This document shows positions 4,752 to 18,336 of a stretch of 32,000 nucleotides of DNA, one piece after another. Origin of the DNA: Candidatus Saccharimonadota bacterium (GTDB lineage: Bacteria; Patescibacteriota; Microgenomatia; UBA1406; GWC2-37-13). The position numbers were made by a program, and so were the translations under genes. The notes below the pieces were generated by a model. It saw nothing but the letters and a program-made list of their open reading frames with translations. It searched no databases and was not told where the DNA came from. Every line of letters begins with the position of its first letter. Within the stretch, counting starts at the first letter, position 1. The DNA lies in contig CP066689.1 of assembly GCA_016432445.1 (NCBI GenBank), positions 720,001 to 752,000 on the forward strand, given 5' to 3'.

Positions 4752-4833
4752 TGTCATTGCGAGCGAACAAAGTGAGCGCGGTAATCTAATGACCTGCGGA
4801 TTGCTTCGGTCATTACATTCCCTCGCAATGACA
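4752..4833. repeat. nested palindromic element (GTCATTGCGAG family), probable bidirectional terminator
   Basis: Outer 12-bp perfect stem TGTCATTGCGAG (4752-4763) / CTCGCAATGACA (4822-4833). Inner 8-bp stem TAATGACC (4787-4794) / GGTCATTA (4808-4815). It sits between the rarA stop and the cysS promoter. It is G+C-richer than its surroundings. Confidence 0.65.
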
Positions 4834-6456: not shown

Positions 6457-6529
6457 GGTGATTGTAGCTCAATGGTAGAGCACCGCCCTGTGGAGGCGGG
6501 TGTTGCGGGTTCGAGTCCCGTCAGTCACC
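6457..6529 (+). tRNA. tRNA-His (anticodon GTG) with encoded G-1 and C73
   Basis: Hand-folded. G-1 at 6457, acceptor GTGATTG/CAGTCAC (one T-G wobble), D stem GCTC/GAGC. Anticodon stem CCGCC/GGCGG with loop CTGTGGA. T arm GCGGG-TTCGAGT-CCCGT (one G-T wobble), discriminator C. Confidence 0.9.
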
Positions 6530-8040
6530 CATAACGAGGGGTCAACAGTTTCAAACTGCTTGATTAGCTTGAAGCAAGGAGATAAAGCATCGGTTCTAAA
6601 TCCAGGATATGTGTAAACAACATTTTTTGGGAAAATAGAACCAAGTAGAACTCTTCTTTGTTGTAGACTCCCTTCAAGCCATGCTTTATCTACATTCCAT
6701 AAGAAGTCGTTCATAAAATTTACTACGATATCAATATCTACTTCTTGTAATTTAGCTTCACTTTTTTGGCTCTTTTGAACAAGAAGTTCATCTTCGATCA
6801 ATTCTAATTGTTCATTAAATATCTCATCTGTATAAACACCTCTAAGATGTTTTGCCACCAATCGTTTTCTAACCTCATGTAAAGCGCTAATTTCTTCCTC
6901 AAAGGATCTATACCTATTAGCTAAATGAGAATATCGTATTTCCCATTTTTCTTTTACCATCTCTGTAAACAGCTTTACTAGTTCCTGTTTTGGTTCTGCA
7001 TACCTCAAAAATACCACAAAATCGGTCTCAAAATCATCTTTTGGTATAGATGGACTATGGTGCTTACCACTAACACAATAATAATATGCATATTTACCTC
7101 CATTACCTCTACTAAAAGAACCTGTCATAGGTAGGCCACATTTATCACATAGGACACCTCGTAATGGAAAGATTTCATTTTGTCTATTGTGTTTTATCCC
7201 ATTAGTAAAAGATCTACCATTAATAATTGACTGAACCTTATAAAAAAGATCTTCTGAAATCATAGGAATATGTTTGCCGATTTTATCAATATTAAATACC
7301 TTACTCACGACATAGCCACAATAAAATTTATCTCGGAATATTCTTTGGGTTTGCTGATCACGAGTAATAGGAATCTTATTATTACCATAATTAATATAAA
7401 CCCCTAATTTATTCATAAAAGGCACGATACTAGCTAAGGAATAAGCGCCTGTTCCCATTTCTTCCCATGATTTTTTCACTAATTCAAATTGTTCAGTATC
7501 AGGTTCAATTACTTGTCTATTGTCTCTTGATAAATTTAAATAACCAACTGGAGCTTTACCGGTAGCCCAACCTTCTTCTAAACGTTTACGAATGCCATCT
7601 TTCGTCCTTACTCCCTTTGTAGCATTATCCAATTTTGCTACCGCCGCAAGAAGGGTTTCTAAAAACTCACCTGTGGGATTATTTTCTGTAGGCTCAGTAA
7701 CTGAAATTATTCTTATTCCATATTCAGCTAACCGTTTTTTTATTGCAAGGAAATCATAAGTTTCACGACTAATCCTATCTATTTTATATATGTAAACAGC
7801 AGATATTTCAGATTTATTTTTTCTACAATCTTCTAGAAGTTTTAATAATTCAGGTCGATTAATTGTTTTTGCACTAACACCTTCTTCTCTATAAACATTT
7901 ATTAAATCGTACCCTTGTCTTTCTGCTTCTCTTTTACAATAGTCATATTGATTATCAAGACTGAAGTTAGATACTTGTTCCTCTGAACTAACACGAAGAT
8001 AGGCATAGGCCTTTTTAATCATAATTCCATTATCTACCAT
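6469..8040 (-). CDS. large serine recombinase (integrase)
   Basis: N-terminal resolvase domain with a catalytic-Ser motif (AYAYLRVSSEEQ; YKIDRISR). Central recombinase domain, Cys-rich zinc ribbon (CDKCGLPMTG ... YAYYYC) and a coiled-coil C-terminal region. The last ~20 codons are antisense to tRNA-His. Confidence 0.9.
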   Translation of the reverse strand: MVDNGIMIKKAYAYLRVSSEEQVSNFSLDNQYDYCKREAERQGYDLINVYREEGVSAKTINRPELLKLLEDCRKNKSEISAVYIYKIDRISRETYDFLAIKKRLAEYGIRIISVTEPTENNPTGEFLETLLAAVAKLDNATKGVRTKDGIRKRLEEGWATGKAPVGYLNLSRDNRQVIEPDTEQFELVKKSWEEMGTGAYSLASIVPFMNKLGVYINYGNNKIPITRDQQTQRIFRDKFYCGYVVSKVFNIDKIGKHIPMISEDLFYKVQSIINGRSFTNGIKHNRQNEIFPLRGVLCDKCGLPMTGSFSRGNGGKYAYYYCVSGKHHSPSIPKDDFETDFVVFLRYAEPKQELVKLFTEMVKEKWEIRYSHLANRYRSFEEEISALHEVRKRLVAKHLRGVYTDEIFNEQLELIEDELLVQKSQKSEAKLQEVDIDIVVNFMNDFLWNVDKAWLEGSLQQRRVLLGSIFPKNVVYTYPGFRTDALSPCFKLIKQFETVDPSLWVTDGTRTRNTRLHRAVLYH

Positions 8041-9089: not shown

Positions 9090-9344
9090 TCAACATCCAT
9101 AAATCCTTGACTTAACATCTTTCAGAGCGTAAAAATATTTTTTAGGACTTACTTTTACTGATTCATTCCAATATGATTGAATTGCTTTTTGAAGCTTAGA
9201 AGAGTTGTAGAATATAAAACTCATCTTTTTAGGATTTGTTTTATCAATGTCTATGAGAGGAAAATCCCACGCAATTAAAGCAGCAACTAAAGATAGTTCT
9301 TGTGAGATAAAATAATCATCCTCTCGTAATTCTTTCTTAATCAT
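9090..9344 (-). CDS. DUF5659-like small protein (phage-associated)
   Basis: YFISQELSLVAALIAWDFPLIDIDKTNPKKMSFIFYNSSKLQKAIQSYWN matches my memory of the DUF5659 pattern. Start taken at the internal Met (MIKKEL). Confidence 0.45.
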   Translation of the reverse strand: MIKKELREDDYFISQELSLVAALIAWDFPLIDIDKTNPKKMSFIFYNSSKLQKAIQSYWNESVKVSPKKYFYALKDVKSRIYGC

Positions 9345-9447
9345 AATGACAACTATTAAGTGATTACGAGAAGCTGTCAAGAAGGTAATTTGAAGCTAAA
9401 AAATAGATTTAGGCATAATCTTTATAATCACTTACTTGATTATGAAA

Positions 9448-10224
9448 TTAACGAAGATTAAATAGCCATGCTTTTTCTTCACGCATAAATTCAATGCTAA
9501 ATCTCTGTTTTAGTACTTTTTTTATTTTTTTATTTCTTATATTACTAACCGAATGACCTAAATACGAGCTCCTTATATCTTCATCAAATAACTCTTGATA
9601 TATTTTTATTATTTCTGATGTGGTAAACAAATTGTTACCTGTTCTTTTTCGTAATTCAAGAAAACTTTCTATTATTTTTCTCCATTTTAACGCTCCACTA
9701 AAATCAAGCGTTTCTATATTTCCATCACCCATTTTAAAGAAAAAACTTTTATTGTGATAAACGACATCTTCTCCAGACTTGAAAAATATGGTTTGATTCA
9801 TATTCAAATACTGATTAAGAAGTTGAGTATTTATATTACCAAAGACAATATCAGTATGATAAGCATCTTTATAAGGATTAATTGTCCAACAATCAAAACA
9901 ACCATAAGCTTTTAATTTATCTAAGAAAGCACGAAATAAAGATGATTCCATATTAGTGAAATTAAAACATTGGAGAGGTATCGTTCTTTTTTTAATCGAA
10001 GCCCATTCAATGATCGTCTTTAGTGTGTGAACATATTTATCATCTGTAGTTTTTGTTATTCTTTCTTGTTTTTCCTGCCATAATTTTTTGGCTTCTTCCT
10101 GCTTTTCTTTATAAGCTTTTTGTCTTGACTGCTCTTTTAATTTTTCAATTTGAGGGGTTAATGTATCAGGTATTATATCTGGATAATAAACGGCGGTAAC
10201 ATTTGATTGGCTTTTTTTAGCCAT
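9448..10224 (-). CDS. hypothetical protein with N-terminal charged coiled-coil
   Basis: 258-aa ORF in the minus-strand operon. No family recognised. Confidence 0.55.
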   Translation of the reverse strand: MAKKSQSNVTAVYYPDIIPDTLTPQIEKLKEQSRQKAYKEKQEEAKKLWQEKQERITKTTDDKYVHTLKTIIEWASIKKRTIPLQCFNFTNMESSLFRAFLDKLKAYGCFDCWTINPYKDAYHTDIVFGNINTQLLNQYLNMNQTIFFKSGEDVVYHNKSFFFKMGDGNIETLDFSGALKWRKIIESFLELRKRTGNNLFTTSEIIKIYQELFDEDIRSSYLGHSVSNIRNKKIKKVLKQRFSIEFMREEKAWLFNLR

Positions 10225-12987: not shown

Positions 12988-13641
12988 ATGATTCACAATA
13001 AGACGGAGCTTCTAATCTACCTTATACGCCATGCAGAGTCTGAAATGAATCAAAAACCCGAATTAATAGCCGGTAGAAGTCCCCAAAGCCCTCTTTCAGA
13101 AAAAGGGAAAATTCAATCTCTTAATTTAGGAAGAAAACTAAACCAAGAAGGAATTAAATTTGATGCAATATATTCATCTCCTTTAATAAGAACTAAAATG
13201 ACAGCAGAACTGGTCTTAAAAGAGATGAAAATATCAAAAGATATGATTATAGAAGTACCGGAGTTAGTAGAATTTAGTTCCGGTGATTGGGAAGGTCGCT
13301 CTAGACAAGAAATTTATACGCCAGAGATATTACAATACATAAATACAAAAGGGTCATTATTTACTCCTCCTAATGGAGAATCTCAATTAATGGTTGAACA
13401 TAGAGCATCCGGATGGTTTATTAAAGAAATACTACATAATCCTAATTATTTTGATAAAACAAAAACTATAGCTATTTTTTCTCATGGATTGACTATAAAA
13501 TGTTTACTTCATTTTGTAATGCATTTTGATGATCGTTTAATTTACAGAATCCGTTTAGACAATACCGCTTACTGCAAGTTACGCTTGAATCGTGAAGGAT
13601 GGTTTATTGATAGTCTCAATGAGACTTCACAATTACTATGA
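12988..13641 (+). CDS. histidine phosphatase family protein (phosphoglycerate-mutase-like)
   Basis: N-terminal RHG-type motif (LIRHAESEMN), SSPLIRTKMTAE and the C-terminal His motif (IFSHGLTIKCLL). Confidence 0.8.
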   Translation: MIHNKTELLIYLIRHAESEMNQKPELIAGRSPQSPLSEKGKIQSLNLGRKLNQEGIKFDAIYSSPLIRTKMTAELVLKEMKISKDMIIEVPELVEFSSGDWEGRSRQEIYTPEILQYINTKGSLFTPPNGESQLMVEHRASGWFIKEILHNPNYFDKTKTIAIFSHGLTIKCLLHFVMHFDDRLIYRIRLDNTAYCKLRLNREGWFIDSLNETSQLL

Positions 13642-14119: not shown

Positions 14120-14314
14120 GCCATAAATAACAAAAAAATAGTAAACCATTGGCTAACACCGCAATTACAACAAAAAGTTCGAGATGTTTTTGAACCTCGT
14201 TATAAACGAGAACTAACAGATGAAGAAGTTTTTGAGATTGCAGATAATCTAACAGGTTTAATTGAGGTTATCCTTCAATACCAATGGAGAAAAAAATATA
14301 ACAATAAGACCTAA
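14120..14314 (+). pseudogene. start-less ORF fragment (…NHWLTPQLQQKVRDVFEPRYKRELTDEEVFEIADNLTGLIEVILQYQWRKKYNNKT*)
   Basis: A 64-codon open frame ends at TAA 14312-14314 and has no in-frame ATG, GTG or TTG. The protein-like composition suggests a C-terminal remnant of a longer gene. Confidence 0.25.
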
Positions 14315-15120
14315 ACGCTAGAATTAAGTTGTACAGCTATATTATTAAATTCTTTAGAAAAATCTTCCAATCGCTTATTTAAATTAAGATCAACATAATT
14401 ATTTATCAATTTCAATAATTGTAAATACAGGTCTGCTGATAAAAATATTGATTCATTAACCCAATTATCACTTGGTGAATCATTGTAAATCATTTGATTT
14501 GTTTTGTGTTCAGCAAAATCTTCTAAGCTAGAATACAGCGAATGTGATATCTTAGAAACTTGCCAATAAATTTGTTTGTAATAGTAAAGATAACCAGTTT
14601 CTAAAGCTAAATGTCTCATTGTTGAGAAACTCCAGTTATATTCTTTTATTCCTTTAACTTTTTTTATTTTAAGTTCTTTAATTATATCTTCTCTTGATTT
14701 TTTAATCTTTTCGATAATTTTAATATCACATTTTTCTAATACTTTTTCATATGCTTTTTTTATATCAGGCTTTGATATACCTTCATATAAACCCTTCAGC
14801 CTATTATAATAATCTAATGTGTCATACTCCTTAAATAAAATAGCTCTATTAGTACTGTCTTCTTTTAAGATGTAAGCTAAGGTTACTAATCCCTCAAATA
14901 TCGATCTCGCAATAATGGCTGCATCTTCACCATATCCTTGAGAAAGGATTGTTATAGCTCTGCATGACTTAGTTATTTTAGAAAGAGTCAAAAAAACAAT
15001 TTTATCTATGTCTACATGTTCTTTAGATTGATACTTTACCTCTAAAACATACTTTAATTCATCATTATAGAAATTAATAAGCTTTAATAAATAGTTTTTT
15101 AATGACTCAAACATATTCAT
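14311..15120 (-). CDS. DUF5677-like helical protein
   Basis: KSCRAITILSQGYGEDAAIIARSIFEGLVTLAYILKED resembles the DUF5677 core as I remember it. ATG at 15120 is preferred over the track's TTG at 15144. It is the last gene of the 16911-to-14311 operon. Confidence 0.5.
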   Translation of the reverse strand: MNMFESLKNYLLKLINFYNDELKYVLEVKYQSKEHVDIDKIVFLTLSKITKSCRAITILSQGYGEDAAIIARSIFEGLVTLAYILKEDSTNRAILFKEYDTLDYYNRLKGLYEGISKPDIKKAYEKVLEKCDIKIIEKIKKSREDIIKELKIKKVKGIKEYNWSFSTMRHLALETGYLYYYKQIYWQVSKISHSLYSSLEDFAEHKTNQMIYNDSPSDNWVNESIFLSADLYLQLLKLINNYVDLNLNKRLEDFSKEFNNIAVQLNSSV

Positions 15121-15127
15121 AAAAAAA

Positions 15128-15874
15128 TCATATGAATTCTGCAATAGTAGGTAATATCGGTTTATTGTTAACTCCTATGAATTTATGAGAATATCGTACT
15201 TCGTTTTCTAATGCCGGTAAAATAGGCTCTAAGATAAGAACTGTAGAAATTATATTTGTACCATCTTGAGTAGTTATCTCATCCTGTATAGCGCCACTTC
15301 CTCCCGCCATCGCCGAGACAGCTAACATAGTAATAATTTGATGATGCATGTCAGGAGTAATAACTAATAAATTATTGTCTCCTTTCGTAAACTTCGGTAA
15401 AGCGTTTTTGATGGAATCTTCCACTGTATACTTTATTTCTTCTTCAGATGAAAAAGAACCTGCTTCACCATTAATATATTTAGGCTTACTTACACGTATT
15501 CTTTTTTGACTTTCAGATAAGTTCGAATCTTTCCATAATTGACCTTTCCATGATGGAGCCTTAACTTCAACCTTCCACAAATTATTTTTTAAATCTTTTA
15601 TGGATAGATCTAACTTCGTATAATCTTTTCCATCAGGCTCTAAATCTTCTATATTTAATCTTAGAATTTTTCCAAAAAAATATATTGTTTTAAGTTCACC
15701 AAGTAGTTCATTTCTTTGTTTATCAATTAAAACACGCTTTTTGTTTTTTTTATAATAATCTTTGTTTAAATAAAAAACAAATTCAAGCCATTTATTAATT
15801 TCCTGATTCCACTCGGGTGAGTAACCAAAATCATCTTGAGGAGTATGTTGAAAATAATCAGAATAAAAATTCAT
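15128..15874 (-). CDS. hypothetical protein with PD-(D/E)xK nuclease-like motif
   Basis: 248 aa. LEPDGKDYTKLDLSIKDLKNNLWKVEVKAPS gives P-D, 21 residues, then E-V-K, preceded by a Glu-containing helix (NELLGELK). The fold assignment is inference only. Confidence 0.4.
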   Translation of the reverse strand: MNFYSDYFQHTPQDDFGYSPEWNQEINKWLEFVFYLNKDYYKKNKKRVLIDKQRNELLGELKTIYFFGKILRLNIEDLEPDGKDYTKLDLSIKDLKNNLWKVEVKAPSWKGQLWKDSNLSESQKRIRVSKPKYINGEAGSFSSEEEIKYTVEDSIKNALPKFTKGDNNLLVITPDMHHQIITMLAVSAMAGGSGAIQDEITTQDGTNIISTVLILEPILPALENEVRYSHKFIGVNNKPILPTIAEFI

Positions 15875-15892
15875 TCCATTTGATTAGGAAAC

Positions 15893-16276
15893 TTATACTT
15901 TTTTTCCTAAGAGATTGACAAGAAGATTGAAAAATTTATCTGGTGCTTTATCTAAACTATCAACCACAAGTTTTAATTTTTCTTTTTCTCCAATGTTAGC
16001 CAATTGCTCTGCTTCTCGTTGCAAAATTTCCTTTAAAGCATTAAAAGCTCCATGAATCAAAGTTGCTCTTACTTCATGTTTCTTTTCTTTGTGATATAAC
16101 CACACCGCAATCAATATCAATGCTACTCCCAATGAATTATTTGCAAGATATTGCCATTTGTCTGGAGATAGTTGTAGTGATGTTGTTCCTATTACAATTA
16201 CACCACCAATTCCACCAGCCAATTCTAAGACATTGCTAATTGTCACATTTACTTTAGGATTAAACGGTAATGACAT
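15893..16276 (-). CDS. two-TM membrane protein with C-terminal charged helix
   Basis: 127 aa. TM helices LAGGIGGVIVIGTTSL and LGVALILIAVWLY. No family recognised. Confidence 0.5.
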   Translation of the reverse strand: MSLPFNPKVNVTISNVLELAGGIGGVIVIGTTSLQLSPDKWQYLANNSLGVALILIAVWLYHKEKKHEVRATLIHGAFNALKEILQREAEQLANIGEKEKLKLVVDSLDKAPDKFFNLLVNLLGKKV

Positions 16277-16299
16277 GTGAATAAATTATATCATCAGTT

Positions 16300-16911
16300 T
16301 TATATCCTCACTAGTCTGAAGTTTTTTAAGGATTTACCTAAATTCAGCAAAATAAAATTCCTAACCCACTCTTTTCCTTCAGCAGCAATTTTAACTTTCA
16401 ATAAGTACCTCTTTTGATCAAGTTGAAAATCCGGCTTTTCCCAAGAATATAGATAACTTTCATTATTAAAGGCATAGCATTCATCCATTCCTTGTTTTTT
16501 TATAGCTATAGAAATTTCTGTTGACTCATCAGGTGGTATTGTTTCTCTTGAAACAAGTAATGCATCTCCAATATTAACACCCCCATGATAATCTACTGGT
16601 TCTTTTGTAGTAGTCCAACGACCATTTATTTTGAGCAATTCTGCCTTTGTTTCAGGATCAAGAAAACTTAACCATACCCGAGCATTTGTAGCTGTATTAC
16701 TACTAATAAAAAAACTTAATATTCCTCTTTTAACATTTATAACACTAACATTCATAAATTTATAATGATCTTTAGCTGTAGGAGGTTGAAAAATAGGGGA
16801 AGTCCCTATATCTATTTTAAAATTGGGGGCTGTTAATATATCTGTTAGCCTTTGAAGTAACCATCCAATAATTGCACCAAATAATAATAGTAAAAATTCC
16901 TTTAATTGCAT
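16300..16911 (-). CDS. N-terminally membrane-anchored protein with beta-rich extracytoplasmic-looking domain
   Basis: 203 aa. Single N-terminal TM (FLLLLFGAIIGWLLQ). No family recognised. First gene of the cassette. Confidence 0.5.
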   Translation of the reverse strand: MQLKEFLLLLFGAIIGWLLQRLTDILTAPNFKIDIGTSPIFQPPTAKDHYKFMNVSVINVKRGILSFFISSNTATNARVWLSFLDPETKAELLKINGRWTTTKEPVDYHGGVNIGDALLVSRETIPPDESTEISIAIKKQGMDECYAFNNESYLYSWEKPDFQLDQKRYLLKVKIAAEGKEWVRNFILLNLGKSLKNFRLVRI

Positions 16912-16922
16912 AATTTGTTTAG

Positions 16923-16931
16923 ATTATAACA
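16923..16931 (-). promoter_or_regulatory. extended -10 promoter (TGTTATAAT on minus strand) for the four-gene cassette
   Basis: The reverse complement of 16923-16931 reads TGTTATAAT, 11 nt upstream of the ATG at 16911. Confidence 0.45.
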
Positions 16932-16989: not shown

Positions 16990-17088
16990 TTCTAAGAACT
17001 CATCGTTAATGACCCATTTTTTATGGCTTGAATTTATCTTGATCTTATCAAGATTGTCCTGACGCTCCAGTCAACTCCCGGAGTGTCT
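16990..17088 (+). repeat. repeat copy A: degenerate tRNA-His 3'-end-like segment plus 77-nt two-hairpin trailer
   Basis: 17012-17088 matches 18233-18309 at 68/77 positions by hand alignment. Hairpins are ATCTTGAT/ATCAAGAT (17036-17054) and GACGCTCC/GGAGTGTC (17061-17087). 17004-17017 (CGTTAATGACCCAT) resembles the tRNA end CGTCAGTCACCCAT. Confidence 0.8.
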
Positions 17089-17134
17089 TTAAGTGTCTTT
17101 AATATATAAAAAAACTTTTGATATACTTTGAATC

Positions 17135-18210: not shown

Positions 18211-18309
18211 TTCTAATTGAGTCCGCCCAATCACCCATTTTTTATGGCTTAAATTTGTCTTGATTTTATCAAGATCGTCCTAACACTCCAGTACACTCCC
18301 GGGGTGTCT
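18211..18309 (+). repeat. repeat copy B: tRNA-His 3'-end-like segment plus 77-nt two-hairpin trailer
   Basis: 18217-18238 (TTGAGTCCGCCCAATCACCCAT) aligns with tRNA 6511-6532 at 16/21 positions. Its CAATCAC (18228-18234) is a perfect Watson-Crick complement of the tRNA 5' acceptor GTGATTG. The trailer is homologous to copy A. Confidence 0.8.
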
Positions 18310-18336
18310 ATTATTACCTTGTGGTAAACTTTGTGT

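Follow-up and report, generated by a model that had tools for sequence, protein, structure and literature searches.

Nucleases of the PD-(D/E)xK superfamily, among them the SfsA, NERD, Cas4/ACE1, NucS/EndoMS and Hjc/YraN-type families, share an alpha-beta-beta-beta-alpha-beta order of core elements, and the solitary, type IV-like or single-gene nucleases used in defence (Mrr-type, PD-T7, PDC-S) are encoded without a linked methyltransferase and are found patchily among restriction-modification (R-M), toxin-antitoxin (TA) and abortive-infection (Abi) genes and integrases. Here we describe a protein, g3, that resembles both groups and is encoded by the third of four tightly packed minus-strand genes (g1 to g4; Table 1) in a 32-kb stretch of a metagenome-assembled genome (MAG) of Candidatus Roizmanbacteria, within the Candidate Phyla Radiation (CPR)/Patescibacteria. 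This whole stretch is referred to as the window, and all coordinates are those of the window. An earlier, sequence-only reading had put the four genes forward as a candidate uncharacterised defence or abortive-infection system. We favour, with a probability of roughly 0.5, the reading that the cassette is a local mosaic of independently mobile conflict-island genes centred on g3, which is probably an autonomous nuclease. Both the superfamily and this type of genomic context are already well known; what is new is the g3 family.

Among 1.84 billion cluster representatives searched by profile, 243 fell into the g3 family at E ≤ 1e-3, and 130 did so at E ≤ 1e-10; most are 230–320 aa long and nearly all are metagenomic. 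A word-indexed search returned 11 relatives of g3, and the relatives are scattered patchily over CPR bacteria, together with one Thaumarchaeota MAG. Pfam, NCBIfam and PHROGs hold no model for g3, and no PADLOC model matched it significantly. In an alignment of 95 sequences with a mean identity of 17%, the near-invariant positions are R47, R54, E60, E103, V104, K105, P107, W109 and R127, with E60 kept in 94 sequences, E103 in 92, V104 in 90 and K105 in 91. The nuclease motif had previously been read as PD-x21-EVK, and the E-V-K half of that motif stands. The aspartate of the proposed ‘PD’, D81, is however an aspartate in only 10 of the 95 homologs, whilst position 89 is acidic in every one of them (D in 59, E in 36). 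Because D81 is so poorly kept and position 89 always acidic, the motif is corrected to D89-x13-ExK, and the signature of the family is E60 ... D/E89-x13-E103-V-K105.

An AlphaFold2 model of g3 built on the family alignment (predicted local distance difference test score, pLDDT, 94.5; predicted TM-score, pTM, 0.92) places E60 in helix 51–70, D89 at the opening of strand 90–93 and the ExK inside strand 99–105. As modelled, this is the canonical PD-(D/E)xK layout, alpha(E60)-beta-beta(D89)-beta(E103xK105), with an acidic residue on strand 2, the (D/E)xK on strand 3 and a glutamate in the preceding helix. We conclude that g3 probably represents a new and divergent family of the superfamily with its predicted catalytic set intact, and the description of g3 as nuclease-like is borne out by the conserved catalytic-type residues and by the modelled layout. 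The weak Foldseek matches of g3 are mostly to PD-(D/E)xK proteins, among them ACE1/Cas4, SfsA, Exo5, NucS/EndoMS, EcoO109I, Card1, Can2, AdnAB, MmcB-like proteins and HamA. Weak Pfam matches within the family fall on SfsA in 6 of the 95 sequences (E ≥ 7.7e-4) and on NERD in one, and a search of PDB sequences with the family profile gave chance matches only. One distant cluster of the family carries the Joint Genome Institute (JGI) label ‘Holliday junction resolvase-like predicted endonuclease’. Although the core order is shared with the described families, g3 has no significant match to any single one of them and lacks the Fe-S cysteines of the Cas4 type. It adds to the core a conserved N-terminal three-helix region of its own (R47, R54, W22 and W29) and a C-terminal extension, and in one subfamily, of long proteins, a four-cysteine zinc-ribbon insert follows directly after the ExK strand. 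An assignment of g3 to LmuB of the Lamassu system was considered and rejected: the match amounts to 16 bits (E = 9.5e-4) over 90 of 563 model positions, and the modelled g3 fold is that of a nuclease, not of an SMC-like ATPase. Scans of the neighbours of g3 with hidden Markov models (HMMs) found neither LmuA nor LmuC.

Under the favoured reading, g3 would be a self-sufficient, Mg2+-dependent DNA endonuclease directed against foreign DNA, a solitary nuclease of restriction or abortive-infection type that works without a methyltransferase, and its N-terminal three-helix region may provide target recognition or regulation. The other three genes would be separate cargo modules, co-oriented with g3 by chance and probably co-transcribed with it. 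Like the solitary defence nucleases, g3 is a single gene without a linked methyltransferase and has a patchy distribution among R-M, TA and Abi genes and integrases; in contrast to them, it belongs to no PADLOC model, and its activity and any specificity for modified DNA are putative.

To compare the gene content of related loci (labelled L001 to L039 in this analysis), all open reading frames (ORFs) of the gathered loci were compared by BLAST and HMM, and 31 related loci were searched by tblastn and HMM. The comparison covered 17 g3 loci, four more with distant g3 members, five g1 contexts and one g4 context. The four-gene set was found only in assemblies of this one population, in identical arrangement in all of them. 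Across the compared loci only g3 is constant, and its same-strand neighbour differs in nearly every lineage. The neighbour is a DUF5677 protein in this window only; a 693-aa protein with MerR-type helix-turn-helix (HTH), DUF7380 and DUF4209 domains in L001, L003 and L008; an unannotated 283-aa protein in L004 and L005; HNH_5 and 309-aa proteins in L006; proteins of 310 and 333 aa in L007 and L009; and g1-like proteins in L013 and L016/L017. At L012, L025-27, L028-30 and L038/39 g3 stands solo with no shared partner, in L028-30 on an integrase/MobC element. The comparison shows neighbours that look like interchangeable, autonomous modules. Several of these neighbours were tried by HMM and hhalign as hidden relatives of g3, g4 or g1 and rejected, namely the 283-aa protein of L004, the 310- and 333-aa proteins of L007, those of 237 and 238 aa in L019, 411 and 186 aa in L020, and 248 and 296 aa in L013, and the 263-aa and 389-aa proteins of L021 and L017. 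Since g3 is often found solo with its catalytic residues intact, and has no conserved methyltransferase or immunity partner, it is probably autonomous.

These observations bear most directly on the proposal that all four genes jointly form a new defence or abortive-infection system of several components, combining membrane effectors, a nuclease and a DUF5677 protein. The proposal draws on the co-orientation of the genes, their gaps of 7–23 nt, the strong −10-like box upstream and the terminator-like hairpin downstream, on the unchanging arrangement in all assemblies of the population, and on the layout of g2 (two transmembrane segments plus a helix), with its sub-threshold SLATT_5 match. The co-occurrence check nevertheless failed, the set being confined to this population; neither the set nor the g3-g4 pair is present in other lineages across the 17 loci with g3, the 7 contexts of g1 and the single homolog of g4, g2 is an orphan, g3 frequently stands solo, and no PADLOC system was matched. 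We regard a four-gene system as very unlikely.

Whether g3 serves defence at all is a separate matter. It could instead be a nuclease for mobile-element maintenance or recombination (resolvase-like, or a repair enzyme), or a selfish, free-standing homing-type endonuclease. The JGI label on the distant member would suit such a role, as would the repair nucleases NucS/EndoMS, Exo5 and MmcB-like proteins among the weak Foldseek matches, the integrases or recombinases often found nearby, and a solo copy wedged between two biosynthetic genes. The neighbours of g3 are however mainly of R-M or defence type, and there is no conserved linkage to a recombination or replication gene. Searches by tblastn for g3, g1 and g4 found no relatives in collections of 50,697 phage and 72,556 plasmid records, where housekeeping nucleases of mobile genetic elements would be expected, and for a homing-type enzyme there is no sign of an intron, an intein or a target-site association. 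A role outside defence seems to us unlikely. The solo copy in question, a distant family member at L025:4365-7480 (also in L026 and L027), lies alone and co-directional between leuD and ilvD, flanked by DUF433/DUF5615 and HicAB toxin-antitoxin pairs, and the site has the appearance of a small hot spot for insertions within a cluster of biosynthetic genes.

The only recurrent linkage of g3 is its adjacency to g1, seen in two further independent contexts. Homologs of g1 were found in 13 clusters, and those of L013 and L016/L017 (~41% identity) lie 14–16 nt downstream of long-form g3 homologs (~31%), in an order that differs from that of the window; among the 31 related loci, g3 and g1 occur together only in L013, L016 and L017. 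As the earlier reading had it, g1 is a single-pass anchored, beta-rich protein: hydropathy gives one N-terminal hydrophobic segment, and the AlphaFold2 model (13 sequences; pLDDT 79, pTM 0.73) has a transmembrane helix at residues 3–27 followed by a beta-sandwich. The fold is confirmed by the model as anchored and beta-rich and is uninformative on function, the Foldseek matches being weak and generic (immunoglobulin-like, ApaG-like and TMEM106B-luminal, all above 1e-3), and no Pfam, NCBIfam or PADLOC model matched g1.

Three g1 homologs occur without g3. One follows a pair formed by a methyltransferase (MTase) and an MvaI/BcnI restriction endonuclease (REase) in L031, one follows a 411-aa protein with a PD..IECK motif and a weak Mrr_cat match in L020, and one lies beside an uncharacterised 263-aa protein next to a serine recombinase in L021. 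Counting the three g3-family cases together with L031 and L020, a nuclease-type gene is no more than two genes away from g1 in five of six informative contexts. The nearest homolog of g1 (85%) stands at the end of a contig, L018, beside AbiEii/DUF6922, NYN, PIN and ParE genes. A second recurring set, of long-form g3, g1 and a protein family labelled F21 in shuffled order, is present at L013:5947-9146, L016:76-2536 and L017:105-2466. The F21 protein (~297 aa) common to these loci has a PD..x11-12..IECK motif; in L017 the next protein after the set, of 389 aa, appears, by eye only, to be of AlbA_2/Schlafen type. Homology between F21 and the 411-aa protein of L020 was considered and rejected, the two matching only at the PD..ECK motif (E = 0.008, probability 5%).

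It has to be asked, then, whether g1 and g3 form a two-component module, in which a membrane-anchored sensor or localiser would be paired with a nuclease effector and g2 and g4 would be add-ons. The linkage has outlived rearrangement and deep divergence, with the order changed in L013 and L016/L017, and the proximity of g1 to nuclease-type genes points the same way. Most g3 loci nevertheless lack g1, and the g1 homolog of L031 follows a complete MTase-REase pair, for which no helper should be required. Nucleases are in any case the most frequent neighbours in islands, and if g2 has a promoter of its own, which is possible, g1 and g3 would be uncoupled in the window. We consider such a module unlikely, though not negligibly so. 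A wider version, to which we give little credence, would make g1-type proteins the dedicated partners of interchangeable PD-(D/E)xK nucleases (g3, the F21/PD..ECK type and the MvaI/BcnI type) in a new membrane-coupled restriction or abortive-infection architecture of the CPR, with g3 as the commonest effector. The set in the window would then be an elaborated version of that architecture, with g2 as a small pore-like protein of two transmembrane segments and a DUF5677 regulator.

The assignment of g4 to DUF5677 stands on an end-to-end Pfam match (E = 1.6e-24; 87.3 bits against a cut-off of 27.1; model positions 1–164 of 166), and the precomputed Pfam label on proteins P0173 and P0174 agrees with DUF5677. 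A sequence search of the PDB with g4 returned nothing. To our knowledge, nothing is known about the DUF5677 domain. A word-indexed search gave one other close relative of g4, P0174 (67% identity), which is encoded last in a three-gene, same-strand cluster at L019:2011-4327, after a 237-aa protein and a MauJ-family protein (PF17419, E = 1e-9); a TIR_2 gene lies close by and no g3 relative adjoins. The 237-aa protein has an RNPYLH motif, of HEPN-type Rx4H by eye. This cluster may be a different DUF5677-containing module; a look at the literature on MauJ found only unrelated papers. Conservation of the nuclease-DUF5677 pair was not borne out: nowhere else among the 31 related loci does g4 lie beside g3, although the wider DUF5677 family was not searched exhaustively, and before the nearest g4 homolog there stands a gene of the MauJ family in place of g3.

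DUF5677 genes are reported to be enriched beside serine recombinases in Bacillota, and serine recombinases to mark defence cargo (RADS preprint, 10.1101/2025.10.07.681051). The present locus is similar in that g4 matches the Pfam model over its whole length and the element carries a large serine recombinase, but g4 lies ~6 kb from the recombinase, is not co-transcribed with it, and its host belongs to the CPR and not to the Bacillota. A pairing of g3 with g4 as toxin and immunity protein, or toxin and antitoxin, in which the all-helical DUF5677 protein would restrain the nuclease, is suggested by their 7-nt spacing, the tightest in the cluster, by the lack of a methyltransferase that would protect the host from g3, and by the small TA pairs around one solo g3 homolog. 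The catalytic residues are nevertheless intact in solo g3 copies that have neither DUF5677 nor any other shared partner, and DUF5677 occurs elsewhere with unrelated neighbours and, in Bacillota, beside serine recombinases; we hold such a pairing to be highly improbable.

As had been proposed, g2 has two probable transmembrane segments, with hydropathy peaks at residues 11–29 and 43–61. It resembles the SLATT effectors in having two such segments and then a helical tail, and its sub-threshold alignment to SLATT_5 (PF18160) spans residues 26–93; assignment to that family was rejected (11.9 bits against a gathering threshold of 29.5, E = 0.15), and, unlike for SLATT effectors, no SMODS, SLOG or other nucleotide-signalling gene lies near. 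No g2 homologs were found by tblastn and HMM in the 31 related loci; the large protein databases were not searched for g2.

The layout of the cassette had been described exactly, with four minus-strand genes separated by 23, 18 and 7 nt (g1-g2, g2-g3 and g3-g4), and independent gene callers agree on the same four genes in other assemblies of the same population. The proteins g1, g3 and g4 are 100% identical to NCBI HYW86_03905, HYW86_03895 and HYW86_03890. For g4 the gene callers pick the ATG at 15120, whereas the mechanical ORF start is an upstream TTG at 15144. The cassette had also been credited with a strong extended −10 promoter of its own. The box TGTTATAAT is indeed present before g1. 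TGNTATAAT occurs twice in the window against 3.0 expected from shuffled sequence, which is not above chance, and a −35/−10 promoter scan did not call the box before g1. Both copies of TGNTATAAT in the window sit just before start codons, those of g1 and g2. Neither start has a Shine-Dalgarno sequence, which suggests that the g1 and g2 mRNAs may be leaderless or nearly so. The second box, TGATATAAT, is a possible internal promoter for g2 to g4, and would give two transcription units, g1 and g2-g4. Downstream, a 57-codon open frame on the plus strand converges on g4, its translation ending in ...WLTPQLQQKVRDVFEPRYKRELTDEEVFEIADNLTGLIEVILQYQWRKKYNNKT before the stop; it has no ATG, GTG or TTG start, the terminator-like hairpin of the cassette falls within it, and it may be a gene remnant or the user of a non-canonical start.

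Table 1. Coordinates of the cassette genes and of other features of the 32-kb window.
Feature	Position	Strand	Basis
g1: 203-aa membrane-anchored beta-sandwich protein	16300..16911	-	ORF, hydropathy, AlphaFold2
g2: 127-aa orphan, two hydrophobic segments and a charged C-terminal helix	15893..16276	-	ORF, hydropathy
g3: 248-aa PD-(D/E)xK nuclease-like protein	15128..15874	-	ORF, residue conservation, AlphaFold2
g4: 269-aa DUF5677 (PF18928) protein	14311..15120	-	ORF, Pfam
TGTTATAAT extended −10-like box, 11 nt before the g1 ATG	16923..16931	-	sequence scan; putative promoter
TGATATAAT extended −10-like box, 8 nt before the g2 ATG	16285..16293	-	sequence scan; putative function
terminator-like hairpin and T-run, ~110 nt past the g4 stop	14180..14199	-	consensus scan only
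57-codon open frame	14140-14310	+
large serine recombinase (Resolvase+Recombinase+Zn_ribbon_recom)	6469-8040	-	domain composition
tRNA-His	6458-6530	+
DUF5659 gene	9090-9380	-	E = 3.5e-11
258-aa ORF	9448-10224	-	sub-threshold NNH2 (E = 0.0027)
His_Phos_1 gene	12988-13641
92-nt direct repeat, first copy	17008-17099
92-nt direct repeat, second copy	18229-18320
35-nt GC-rich inverted repeat	4752-4833

The wider neighbourhoods of these families are rich in R-M and defence genes. When 99 neighbours drawn from non-redundant loci were pooled and scanned with PADLOC, components of type I, II, IIG and III R-M systems were found together with PDC-S05, PDC-S07 and PDC-S39, and the g1, g3 and g4 neighbourhoods also hold TA pairs, AbiEii, TIR, and tyrosine or serine recombinases. 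Two of the neighbours of g3 correspond to single-gene defence candidates in PADLOC: the 309-aa protein of L006 matches PD-T7-5 (1.4e-23), an experimentally validated single-gene system, and the 693-aa protein matches PDC-S39 (4.9e-49). The DUF4209 domain of the latter is a HEPN family (PMC3710099). In the window itself, a classical type II R-M system was rejected as an explanation, since no cognate methyltransferase gene adjoins the nuclease: neither g1, g2 and g4 nor the neighbouring ORFs from 6.4 to 25.4 kb contain a methyltransferase domain, and in the majority of g3 loci elsewhere no methyltransferase gene adjoins g3 either. In PADLOC-DB v2, g3 had just the weak LmuB match, and g1, g2 and g4 had no significant match. 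The statement that the cassette corresponds to no named system is upheld by these scans, with no assignment from Pfam, NCBIfam, PADLOC or PHROG.

The cassette had been viewed as cargo of an integrated element, and the composition of the window agrees with this. A low-GC segment (27–33% GC from ~7 to 18 kb, against 36–44% to its left) starts at a large serine recombinase gene that abuts tRNA-His; the 3′ end of the recombinase ORF overlaps the tRNA gene by ~60 nt, which would fit an element inserted at that gene. The segment contains mostly unannotated ORFs, along with a DUF5659 gene, an XRE-type HTH gene and a histidine phosphatase gene. An integrated element is plausible, yet known markers do not identify it as a defence island. 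Within it, neither the DUF5659 gene nor a 258-aa ORF matched a PADLOC model; the latter has a sub-threshold match to NNH2, the NACHT N-terminal helical domain 2. The His_Phos_1 gene lies within ~1.5 kb of g3, and a gene of the same family (L038:4373-4984) is found within the same distance of a g3-family gene in an unrelated MAG, GCA_041890195.1, which could reflect a shared chromosomal insertion neighbourhood or coincidence.

The cassette was also said to abut a repeat at the end of the island. A 92-nt direct repeat is indeed present next to it, in two copies of 84% identity placed around two GNAT acetyltransferase genes, but the island may extend further than the first of them. Each copy contains a near-perfect palindrome, ATCTTGAT-CTT-ATCAAGAT, and is situated just upstream of a plus-strand gene. 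Because the second copy opens with GAGTCCGCCCAATCACCCAT, which matches the 3′ end of tRNA-His at 16 of 20 positions (~99th percentile of background), the right edge of the island may lie near 18.24 kb, and the GNAT pair may be a separate inserted unit. At 17.0 kb no att-type repeat of the tRNA-His end was found. The 92-nt repeat belongs to no Rfam family, shows no hairpin covariation and has no similar palindrome near the recombinase end. Elsewhere in the window, a GC-rich inverted repeat of 35 nt (TGTCATTGCGAGCGAACAAAGTGAGCGCGGTAATC / ...CAATGACA) lies between two plus-strand genes and is conspicuous in AT-rich sequence.

Several points weigh against the view that the cassette is a mosaic around an autonomous defence nuclease. 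We infer that g3 is active as a nuclease, that DNA is its substrate, that it serves defence and that it does so autonomously. Its assignment to the superfamily rests on topology, on the motif and on the make-up of the list of weak matches, because Foldseek searches of the PDB and BFVD gave no match at E ≤ 1e-3 (best E = 1.9e-3, TM-score ≤ 0.35). The conflict role of the families is supported by association, through R-M- and defence-rich, integrase-linked neighbourhoods and with no background comparison, and the rest of the island in the window has no PADLOC match except a generic XRE HTH. The gaps of 7–23 nt and the one obvious promoter-like box upstream have the look of a real operon, and the recurrence of g1 beside g3 in two independent contexts makes some functional coupling of the two possible. 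Of nine candidates tested in Enterococcus faecalis, five were active, and a single DUF5677 ORF tested alone was not among them (10.1101/2025.10.07.681051).

The comparison also shows that tight packing within an island does not suffice to call a multi-gene system; the genes here follow separate evolutionary paths. The adjacency of g1 to nuclease genes and the uncharacterised DUF5677 domain are modest leads. The family of g3 is the more substantial outcome. Were g3 active and autonomous, it would add a new family of ~240 clusters to the single-gene restriction-type defences, one that is found mainly in the CPR and in some archaea, hosts whose anti-phage repertoire is poorly known and for the most part missed by current HMM-based tools.

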